This document shows positions 5,948-7,982 of a stretch of DNA of 7,982 nt, one piece after another. The stretch's first letter is position 1. Each line of letters begins with the position of its first letter. The DNA is from a virus (lineage: Duplodnaviria > Heunggongvirae > Uroviricota > Caudoviricetes): IMG/VR virus record IMGVR_UViG_2690316184_000004, positions 1-7,982 of that record; one strand, 5' to 3'. The notes under the pieces are model-generated. The model saw only the letters and a program-made list of their open reading frames with translations, did not search any database and was not told the DNA's origin. Position numbers and translations under genes: made by a program.

Positions 5948-5962
5948 TGGCGGTTTTTTATT
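5939..5962 (+). terminator. Rho-independent terminator
   Basis: GC-rich stem CCGCC (5940-5944) / GGCGG (5949-5953) with 4-nt loop TGAT, followed by T-run TTTTTTATT (5954-5962). Confidence 0.6.
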
Positions 5963-6004
5963 ACCTGATTTGCAGGTTCGATTCCCTATTCGGAGATAGC
6001 ACTC

Positions 6005-6205
6005 ATGCAACACGAACTACAACCTGATTCACTGGTTGATTTGAAATTCATCATGGCCGATACTGGCTTTGGTAAAACCTTCATCTATGACCGGATTAAG
6101 TCCGGCGACCTGCCAAAAGCCAAAGTTATCCACGGTCGAGCAAGATGGTTATATCGTGACCATTGTGAATTCAAAAATAAGCTCTTAAGCCGCGCCAATG
6201 GGTAA
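6005..6205 (+). CDS. AlpA/Xis-like prophage DNA-binding protein (excisionase or transcriptional regulator family)
   Basis: 66 aa; GGAGA (5991-5995) upstream of ATG 6005. FIMADTGFGKTFIYDRIKSGDLPKAKVIHGRARWLYRDHCEF fits the AlpA-family pattern (helix-turn-helix, tG.s.stIY..i..G.FP, conserved Trp). Last gene of the phage operon, where xis sits in lambdoid phages. Confidence 0.7.
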   Translation: MQHELQPDSLVDLKFIMADTGFGKTFIYDRIKSGDLPKAKVIHGRARWLYRDHCEFKNKLLSRANG

Positions 6206-6221
6206 AATAGCGGGTAAAATA
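6200..6221 (+). repeat. Tandem direct repeat GGGTAAAATA x2 (12-bp period) overlapping the AlpA-like stop codon
   Basis: GGGTAAAATA at 6200-6209 and again at 6212-6221, separated by GC. Each copy contains a -10-like TAAAAT. Confidence 0.4.
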
Positions 6222-6254
6222 TTTCTCACATCTAAAAAACACCATTCCAATCAA

Positions 6255-6288
6255 TCCCCTGCTGCTTCAAGTAGATGTCTGCAGGGGA
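6255..6288. repeat. 8-bp inverted repeat TCCCCTGC / GCAGGGGA with 18-nt spacer
   Basis: TCCCCTGC (6255-6262) is the exact reverse complement of GCAGGGGA (6281-6288). No U-tract follows on either strand. Confidence 0.35.
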
Positions 6289-6681
6289 CACCAGATACCC
6301 TTCAAACGAAATCTACCTTCACCCCGTAAAAGATGGGTTTGGCAGCACACTTGCCTTATATCTACTCATTTTTACTGCAACAGGTTGAAATCTCAGCACT
6401 GTCAGAAAGCGCTGATGACTAAACAGCCCTGAGCCGGGCGATGTAACCATCACACAGAATCCTGATAGCGAAATATGGCGTGACTCGATACTTCACTCCG
6501 CAATGCATTCCTTGATGAATTCGCAGGACCGTGATACACGGGACAGGTCACTGAATGACGACAATGTCCTGGAAATCAGCGAACCGCGCATCTGAAGTAC
6601 ATTTGAGCGACTGTACCAGAACATGAATGAGGCGTTTGGATTAGGCGATTATTAGCAGGGCTAAGCATTTTACTATTATTA

Positions 6682-6725
6682 TTTTCCGGTTGAGGGATAT
6701 AGAGCTATCGACAACAACCGGAAAA
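6682..6725. repeat. 11-bp perfect inverted repeat TTTTCCGGTTG / CAACCGGAAAA with 22-nt spacer, 10 bp from the transporter stop codon
   Basis: TTTTCCGGTTG (6682-6692) and CAACCGGAAAA (6715-6725) are exact reverse complements. The T/A runs are part of the stem, not a 3' U-tract, so it is not a canonical intrinsic terminator on either strand. Confidence 0.4.
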
Positions 6726-6734
6726 AGTTTACGT

Positions 6735-7982
6735 CTATATTGCTGAAGGTACAGGCGTTTCCATAACTATTTGCTCGCGTTTTTTACTCAAGAAGAAAAT
6801 GCCAAATAGCAACATCAGGCAGACAATACCCGAAATTGCGAAGAAAACTGTCTGGTAGCCTGCGTGGTCAAAGAGTATCCCAGTCGGCGTTGAAAGCAGC
6901 ACAATCCCAAGCGAACTGGCAATTTGAAAACCAATCAGAAAGATCGTCGACGACAGGCGCTTATCAAAGTTTGCCACGCTGTATTTGAAGACGGATATGA
7001 CACAAAGTGGAACCTCAATGGCATGTAACAACTTCACTAATGAAATAATCCAGGGGTTAACGAACAGCGCGCAGGAAAGGATACGCAACGCCATAATCAC
7101 AACTCCGATAAGTAATGCATTTTTTGGCCCTACCCGATTCACAAAGAAAGGAATAATCGCCATGCACAGCGCTTCGAGTACCACCTGGAATGAGTTGAGA
7201 TAACCATACAGGCGCGTTCCTACATCGTGTGATTCGAATAAACCTGCATAAAAGACAGGAAAAAGTTGTTGATCAAAAATGTTATAGAAAGACCACGTCC
7301 CCACAATAAATATGACGAAAACCCAGAAGTTTCGATCCTTGAAAACTGCGATAAAATCCTCTTTTTTTACCCCTCCCGCATCTGCCGCTACGCACTGGTG
7401 ATCCTTATCTTTAAAACGCATGTTGATCATCATAAATACAGCGCCAAATAGCGAGACCAACCAGAAGTTGATATGGGGACTGATACTAAAAAATATGCCG
7501 GCAAAGAACGCGCCAATAGCATAGCCAAAAGATCCCCAGGCGCGCGCTGTTCCATATTCGAAATGAAAATTTCGCGCCATTTTTTCGGTGAAGCTATCAA
7601 GCAAACCGCATCCCGCCAGATACCCCAAGCCAAAAAATAGCGCCCCCGGAATTAGACCTACAGAAAAATTGCTTTGCAGTAACGGTTCATAAACGTAAAT
7701 CATAAACGGTCCGGTCAAGACCAGGATGAAACTCATACACCAGATGAGCGGTTTCTTCAGACCGAGTTTATCCTGAACGATGCCGTAGAACATCATAAAT
7801 AGAATGCTGGTAAACTGGTTGACCGAATAAAGTGTACCTAATTCCGTCCCTGTCAACCCTAGATGTCCTTTCAGCCAAATAGCGTATAACGACCACCACA
7901 GCGACCAGGAAATAAAAAAGAGAAATGAGTAACTGGATGCAAAACGATAGTACGCATTTCTGAATGGAATATTCAGTGCCAT
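6735..7982 (-). CDS. MFS transporter of the LacY-like oligosaccharide:H+ symporter family (substrate unknown)
   Basis: 415-aa ORF on the - strand with ATG at the very window edge (7980-7982), stop TAG at 6735-6737. Highly hydrophobic with about 12 predicted TM segments. N-terminal NAYYRFASSYSFLFFISWSLWWSLYAIWL parallels LacY [28 protein letters not shown]. The true start may lie beyond the window. Confidence 0.85.
   Translation of the reverse strand: MALNIPFRNAYYRFASSYSFLFFISWSLWWSLYAIWLKGHLGLTGTELGTLYSVNQFTSILFMMFYGIVQDKLGLKKPLIWCMSFILVLTGPFMIYVYEPLLQSNFSVGLIPGALFFGLGYLAGCGLLDSFTEKMARNFHFEYGTARAWGSFGYAIGAFFAGIFFSISPHINFWLVSLFGAVFMMINMRFKDKDHQCVAADAGGVKKEDFIAVFKDRNFWVFVIFIVGTWSFYNIFDQQLFPVFYAGLFESHDVGTRLYGYLNSFQVVLEALCMAIIPFFVNRVGPKNALLIGVVIMALRILSCALFVNPWIISLVKLLHAIEVPLCVISVFKYSVANFDKRLSSTIFLIGFQIASSLGIVLLSTPTGILFDHAGYQTVFFAISGIVCLMLLFGIFFLSKKREQIVMETPVPSAI

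Follow-up and report, generated by a model that had tools for sequence, protein, structure and literature searches.

Tandem direct repeats at the end of torI as putative IntS arm-type sites in the attR of a KplE1/HK620/Sf6-type prophage

torI and the attR junction at argW

The window analysed here, by which we mean the whole 7,982-nucleotide stretch of viral DNA, carries a small plus-strand gene at 6005–6205 whose 66-aa product aligns along its entire length with PDB 1Z4H, "Tor inhibition protein" (E = 6.6e-43), and the matching gene in E. coli genomes bears the RefSeq name TorI. On the basis of this match and name, the gene is assigned as torI, the recombination directionality factor (RDF, or excisionase) of the KplE1/HK620/Sf6 module. 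The original prediction had described it as AlpA-like or xis-like; a Pfam search of the 66-aa protein that included the AlpA family (Phage_AlpA) returned no family at E ≤ 1e-3. TorI has a solved winged-helix structure (1Z4H), and some sources label its homologues "AlpA family". All homologues recovered with the protein as query were about 60% identical to it or closer.

Upstream of the gene, and outside the finding itself, lies a CAGGTTCGATTCCC box (5973–5986, plus strand), about 30 nt before the torI ATG, which contains GTTCG and matches the argW T-arm; the exact match to the T-arm extends over 16 bp (TTGCAGGTTCGATTCC, at 5970–5986). The box is kept at the same position in Edwardsiella, Pantoea, Serratia, Citrobacter and Erwinia relatives, and is tandemly duplicated in loci of the type found in Erwinia phage Midgardsormr38. 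With the published TorI-site motif GTTCG in it, the box is a candidate auto-operator for TorI; the promoter PtorI is described in the literature as uncharacterised. In the same region, the cII-binding box of the HK620 annotation, TTGCCTGATTTGC, reads TTACCTGATTTGC at 5961–5973, both here and in K-12 KplE1, and the cII-dependent integration promoter may be impaired in copies with TTACCTGATTTGC.

When 5950–6750 was searched against E. coli genomes and phages, the query split into a phage part and a host part. HK620, Sf6, HK633, Kapi1 and many prophages matched query positions 1–344, ending at window position 6293, and non-lysogenic genomes matched query positions 330–801, beginning at window position 6279, where they carry a tRNA-Arg and a sucrose-type MFS transporter gene. 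Since phage homology stops at 6293 and host homology begins at 6279, the window holds the attR of a KplE1/HK620/Sf6-type prophage inserted at the 3' end of argW. The identity block CTGCAGGGGACACCA (6279–6293, plus strand), which forms the 3' end of argW, a tRNA-Arg gene, was delimited by the overlap of the phage and host matches and by alignment of the K-12 attR and HK620 attP, and covers 15 nt of the 16-nt KplE1 core CTGCAGGGGACACCAT as published (quoted in PMC2951348). The Kapi1 paper describes the same core, with xis and int on opposite sides of attP.

The locus has the TorI-type RDF of the argW module, its core CTGCAGGGGACACCA(T) and its insertion point, the 3' end of argW. A further feature of the module, intS beside argW at the far end of the prophage, was seen in a lysogen with 99.5% identity in the attR region, the corresponding end of the present prophage being outside the window. 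Over 6183–6293 (111 bp), the window matches both the K-12 KplE1 attR and the P arm of the HK620 attP at 100% identity. The attR substrate used in published in vitro excision (135 bp, functional) was made with the PCR primer attR-IHF2, CTCTTAAGCCGCGCCAATGG, which corresponds to window positions 6183–6202; the substrate therefore starts just ahead of both repeats discussed below and contains them. Beyond the junction, 6294–6734 is host DNA between argW and cscB, a B' flank of the csc-island type that is contiguous with the tRNA-Arg and an oligosaccharide MFS transporter gene in non-lysogens. A perfect 11-bp inverted repeat, TTTTCCGGTTG/CAACCGGAAAA, at 6682–6725 just downstream of the minus-strand cscB stop, is probably the cscB terminator.

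Direct repeats in the P arm

The sequence GGGTAAAATA occurs exactly at 6200–6209 and again at 6212–6221, a start-to-start distance of 12 bp, which confirms the two exact 10-bp copies that had been predicted. Copy 1 had been placed with its start inside the stop codon, which is incorrect: it begins in the last sense codon, GGG (Gly66), and spans the TAA stop at 6203–6205. We refer to the copies as P1 (6200–6209, plus strand) and P2 (6212–6221, plus strand), the putative distal and second IntS arm-type sites of the P arm, respectively. The assignment of P1, which overlaps Gly66 and the TAA of torI, draws on the HK620 attP annotation and on conservation; that of P2 has the same basis, and the 12-bp spacing between them is kept without indels in all relatives.

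Allowing at most one mismatch, the motif occurs three times against 0.38 expected. When the window is shuffled with dinucleotides preserved, 25% of the shuffles contain an exact 10-mer direct repeat no more than 30 bp apart, and inverted repeats of 8 bp with short loops number 7 in the window against 3.6 expected (about twofold). Sequence statistics alone are thus weak for the direct and the inverted repeats, and the case for their reality comes instead from where they lie, from the return of the motif at the opposite end of the prophage and from conservation. A literature search with the motif string returned unrelated primers only.

Conservation was assessed in a non-redundant set of 33 attR/attP sequences, drawn from enterobacteria of about 15 genera and from their phages, the genera including Escherichia, Klebsiella, Erwinia, Serratia, Citrobacter, Pantoea, Edwardsiella, Rouxiella and Tatumella. 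Both copies of GGGTAAA are invariant in this set, 12 bp apart and with no indel between the repeats and the core. The comparison with att regions of related phages that had been proposed as a check therefore finds the repeats at the equivalent position in all 33 relatives. Further copies of the repeat are present in Hafnia-, Cronobacter- and Mixta-type loci. Within E. coli, the repeats are essentially invariant in 53 unique copies; the first viral contig scan had yielded identical E. coli copies only and was used for population variation, not for covariation. Two loci from the homologue search, Rahnella L194 and Arsenophonus L195, have no such repeats after the gene.

The repeats lie 58–79 bp to the left of the core at 6279–6293, inside the stretch of att arm, reaching about 150 bp from the crossover core, in which arm-type sites would be expected. 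The HK620 GenBank record (Clark et al. 2001) places a "repeat_region attP" on exactly GGGTAAAATAGCGGGTAAAATA (23 bp) and annotates more attP repeats just before int. In the HK620 attP, and in the attL of one lysogen, GG(G/A)TAAAA occurs four times (two direct, two inverted) directly upstream of the int ATG; the copies read, in order up to the ATG, GGGTAAAAAG, GGATAAAATA, inverted GGGTAAAATT and GGGTAAAAAT, and are conserved in Klebsiella and Erwinia phages. Across the 50-kb locus of a related lysogen, GGRTAAAAW was found 10 times against 1.7 expected, with two copies in attR, four in attL upstream of the intS ATG and one inside intS. The search for more copies at the other prophage end, likewise proposed as a check, located four directly upstream of intS, in the attL of the related lysogen and in the attP of HK620. 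A GGGTAAAAT copy about 370 bp inside the intS coding sequence (L003:45998–46006; L001:2374–2384) is also marked as an attP repeat in the HK620 record.

IntS itself matches PF13356 (Arm-DNA-bind_3) over residues 2–86 (E = 2e-25), followed by central and catalytic domains. The published arm-type sites of IntS in the P' arm all share TAAA, and the first of them overlaps the –10 of PintS (PMC2951348). Of the functions first suggested for the repeats, that of arm-type recombinase sites is thereby borne out by their distance from the attR core, by the four copies of the motif beside intS and by the arm-binding domain of the integrase. The KplE1 attR sites were reportedly mapped by Panis et al. in 2007 and 2010, with both IntS binding and a requirement for recombination said to have been found.

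Together, these data lead us to consider it highly probable (about 90%) that both GGGTAAAATA copies serve IntS as arm-type sites in the attR P arm, that an A-tract followed by AATCAATCCCCTG is an IHF site, and that crossover takes place inside CTGCAGGGGACACCA. Identity with the experimentally used KplE1 attR, the position of the junction, the recurrence of the motif, its conservation and the domain architecture of the integrase are established. The assignment of GGGTAAAATA to IntS in particular is suggested by motif identity with the published P' sites, by the HK620 GenBank annotation and by the mapping that Panis et al. are reported to have done. The direct repeats would accordingly be the known arm-type sites of the KplE1/HK620/Sf6 attR, so that the finding is real and already known.

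Several other explanations of the repeats were weighed against this assignment. Weak sequence-only statistics would be compatible with both repeats being functionless chance matches, but the repeats are invariant at fixed spacing across about 15 genera, their motif returns in the opposite arm and their sequence is that of an attR substrate that functions. This leaves virtually no probability for chance, and conservation is what refutes it. The repeats had also been offered as binding sites for the Xis or AlpA-like protein. Direct repeats spaced by about one helical turn are typical of RDF sites, and the present pair adjoins torI; both points favour TorI sites, used either for excision or as an operator. 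However, the published TorI sites read GTTCG, GATCG or GTCCG and all five are located on attL (PMC2951348), no motif of these three types is present in 6196–6225, GTTCG-type repeats are kept in the P' arm of every relative, and the GTTCG-containing box is upstream of torI, not downstream. With both the motif and the arm being the wrong ones, it is very unlikely that the repeats are TorI sites, and neither the Xis-site nor the operator option finds support.

The further suggestion of promoter elements, with TAAAAT serving as the –10 of a rightward transcript (hkaB, or int in attP), draws on the similarity of TAAAAT to TATAAT and on the overlap of the other-end copy of the motif with the –10 of PintS. 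Yet a promoter/terminator scan for sigma-70 –35/–10 hexamers at 16–18 bp spacing called none in 6150–6300, no plus-strand gene follows the two copies in attR, and for intS a separate promoter has been mapped, about 140 bp downstream of the attP core. Nor does the open reading frame at 6198–6329 provide a gene to be transcribed, since it contains in-frame stops in a relative and shows no protein conservation. We consider a promoter role highly improbable, and the IntS arm-type assignment is retained.

The same open reading frame encodes 43 aa, is a homologue of HK620 hkaB and Sf6 gene 17, and crosses the att core into host DNA. We tried it as a gene that might explain the conservation of the region and rejected it, given the in-frame stops in Erwinia phage EhrS49 and substitutions that are not protein-like. 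Although annotated in phage records, ORF 6198–6329 is almost certainly not a gene.

The putative IHF site, the core and the inverted repeat

Between the arm-type sites and the core lies a putative IHF site (6234–6261, plus strand), composed of an A6 tract at 6234–6239 and AATCAATCCCCTG at 6249–6261. Across 6150–6330, on both strands, AATCAATCCCCTG is the sole match to the IHF consensus WATCAANNNNTTR at up to one mismatch (it has one), and the CAA block of the putative site is conserved in relatives. The arrangement of an A-tract with an IHF consensus resembles lambda H'. A single functional IHF site on attR was reportedly described by Panis et al. in 2010 (Virology). IHF was included in the published in vitro excision assay. 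The consensus is degenerate or absent at this position in Cronobacter-type and some Pantoea-type relatives, and IHF alone accounts neither for the conservation of CCCCTGC, which occupies the "NNNN" part of the consensus, nor for its covariation with the core.

The alignment of relatives also reveals a dyad, GnTGTn-N7-nACAnC, across the core, with 71% symmetric cells against 6–51% in slid controls and a covarying T-A to C-G change in five sequences whose tRNA ends in ACGCCA, not ACACCA. From this dyad and its covariation we infer a core (C-O-C'/B', 6274–6292) made up of GATGTC at 6274–6279, a 7-bp overlap TGCAGGG at 6280–6286 and GACACC at 6287–6292, in which the half-sites would be the C and C'/B' core-type sites flanking the overlap; the cleavage positions are likewise putative.

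The predicted 8-bp inverted repeat is present as TCCCCTGC at 6255–6262 and GCAGGGGA at 6281–6288, with 100% complementarity. It follows the second direct repeat in the order first described, at a distance of 33 bp and not "about 35 bp". The left arm (plus strand) overlaps the 3' half of the IHF consensus, and the right arm lies 18 nt further on, inside the attR core. Because the right arm falls inside the identity block CTGCAGGGGACACCA, its sequence is dictated by the host tRNA, a point that had been missed in the original prediction. The inverted repeat is consequently not an independent element, one arm being tRNA-fixed overlap/core sequence and the other part of the putative IHF site.

Two further origins of the left arm were tried and discarded. 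As a third IntS core-type site it would copy the overlap bases while lacking the outer GnTGT determinants that covary in the C/C' dyad, and as a direct duplicate of the palindromic CCTGCAGG it fails in that the compensated positions are outside the palindrome and the direct-repeat identity is 5/8. In the P' arm, AATCCCCTG (L001:1868–1880) is a direct copy of the left-arm element and hence complementary to the core; it is located between two TorI-site blocks and is partly conserved in three other aligned phages. Immediately after the left arm, the hexamer at 6263–6268, which would form the loop or the inner-stem left strand of a hairpin, is hypervariable, with 3–4 alleles per site at 4 of its 6 positions. 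It is the most polymorphic spot in 352 bp among the 53 unique, otherwise near-identical E. coli prophage copies (alleles TGCTTC, CGCTTC, CGCGTC, CGCCTC, CGCGCC, ATCGTC and others), and is either an unconstrained spacer or a mutational hotspot.

Whether the inverted repeat has a role of its own was considered for two cases. A GC-rich 8-bp stem downstream of the torI stop might be taken for an intrinsic terminator of torI, but the loop is 18 nt long, no T-run follows the stem, the scan did not call it, and the HK620 annotators put an integration promoter upstream of hkaC that reads through to int in attP; we regard termination here as most improbable. It is possible, though doubtful, that the inverted repeat is additionally a selected hairpin, either an RNA stem-loop in which the torI transcript would end (like a tRNA acceptor/T-arm minihelix with an NCCA tail) or a DNA cruciform in supercoiled attP; it could set where torI mRNA, or the xis-int read-through RNA, has its 3' end, how stable that RNA is or how it is processed. 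In the 33 relatives, 92% of cells are paired against 39–60% in slid controls, RNAalifold returns the same helix, and two independent compensatory changes track the host tRNA (in the Edwardsiella group C-G has become U-A, and in Rouxiella G-C has become A-U). The stem reaches 12–13 bp in most relatives, with TTCGAT in the loop and an NCCA tail, and is a perfect 13 bp in L113 and L114 (L113:1986–2093); minimum free energies lie between –15 and –24 kcal/mol, and z averages –4 when the phage-specific half is shuffled for comparison. Pairing is also kept, with two G·U pairs, in Cronobacter-type loci that lack the IHF-like box, and the left arm, unlike a third IntS core site, is without the GnTGT determinants of the core-type dyad.

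Against a selected hairpin, the covariation term is small (–0.19) and reflects two events only, and complementarity has decayed in L120–122, L022, L025 and Mixta, all of which keep the rest of the module. The window's own fold is unremarkable in context (z –1.4), with 8 solid pairs and an 18-nt loop; Rfam gave 0 matches at E ≤ 1 in the window and ARAGORN 0 tRNA genes; and the missing U-tract after the stem means that the hairpin is not a terminator. Covariation could also come from symmetric recognition by a protein or from repair of one arm templated by the other, and the G·U versus A·C asymmetry that would separate an RNA hairpin from a DNA/protein dyad has to be read with the C-rich left arm in mind, which makes U·G expected under neutral transitions. 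A more specific version, to which we assign a somewhat lower likelihood still, is that the complementarity between the P-arm element (6255–6262, reaching further inward in relatives) and the core is under selection as a tRNA-minihelix-like hairpin, its TTCGAT loop resembling a T-loop, acting on the torI/xis-int transcript, or as an attP DNA structure, and is re-tuned to each host tRNA-Arg 3' end. If this were true, the hairpin might serve in transcript 3'-end definition, in RNase P/exonuclease processing, in stability or in attP DNA structure.

Proposed intasome and comparison with known systems

Taking the repeats as IntS arm-type sites, the N-terminal arm-binding domain of IntS would dock on the two GGGTAAAATA copies, and the A-tract with AATCAATCCCCTG would act as an IHF bending site between these and the core. 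The bend would allow arm-held IntS to reach the core-type sites with its catalytic domains, with crossover occurring inside CTGCAGGGGACACCA (6279–6293), probably across TGCAGGG. Excision would require attR, the attL at the other end, IntS, IHF and TorI, the attL being expected to contribute four more copies of the arm motif and five GTTCG-type TorI sites. Which protein contacts which attR bases, and the exact overlap region, are as we infer them.

The main value of the analysis is one of annotation, as it identifies an argW attR junction, establishes the gene as torI and argues that the "hypothetical" ORF 6198–6329 is not a gene. The repeats would represent a textbook-type intasome element, and the identical sequence has been studied biochemically since 2007. 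Three further points may interest work on tRNA-targeting integrases, namely the conserved, compensated hairpin that links P arm and core, the GTTCG/T-loop-like box kept before torI and the hypervariable hexamer in an otherwise frozen att arm.

The closest known system is that of KplE1 and HK620 (Panis, Mejean & Ansaldi 2007; Clark et al. 2001). The attR of KplE1 (CPS-53) in K-12 and the attP P arm of HK620, Sf6, CUS-3 and Kapi1 share with the window 111 identical bp (for the K-12 attR and the HK620 attP), TorI, the core, and xis and int on opposite sides of attP, an arrangement that places xis (torI) and int at opposite prophage ends throughout the KplE1/HK620/Sf6 family. Within attR, the window differs from KplE1 only in its host flank, where B' is the csc (sucrose) island variant with G rather than T after CACCA, and the duplicated core is for this reason 15 nt here compared with 16 in KplE1. 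The prophage body, as read in a related lysogen, is full-size and lambdoid/P22-like, in contrast to the 10-kb KplE1 remnant.

The hairpin invites comparison with the tRNA acceptor/T-arm minihelix, a model substrate of RNase P and the CCA enzyme, with which the relatives share a 12–13 bp stem, a TTCGAT loop and an NCCA tail. This is a resemblance only, and the window version differs in having 8 solid pairs, an 18-nt loop and no tRNA or Rfam match. With the P arm of the lambda attP (P1, H1, P2, X1/X2/F, H2, C-O-C'), the locus shares a heterobivalent integrase, direct-repeat arm sites with a putative IHF site between these and the core, and a predicted 7-bp overlap between imperfect inverted core-type sites. 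Unlike in lambda, the RDF sites belong to the opposite arm (P'/attL), int and xis stand on either side of attP and not both on one, the integrase is of the P4 type (Arm-DNA-bind_3), and the core is a tRNA 3' end.
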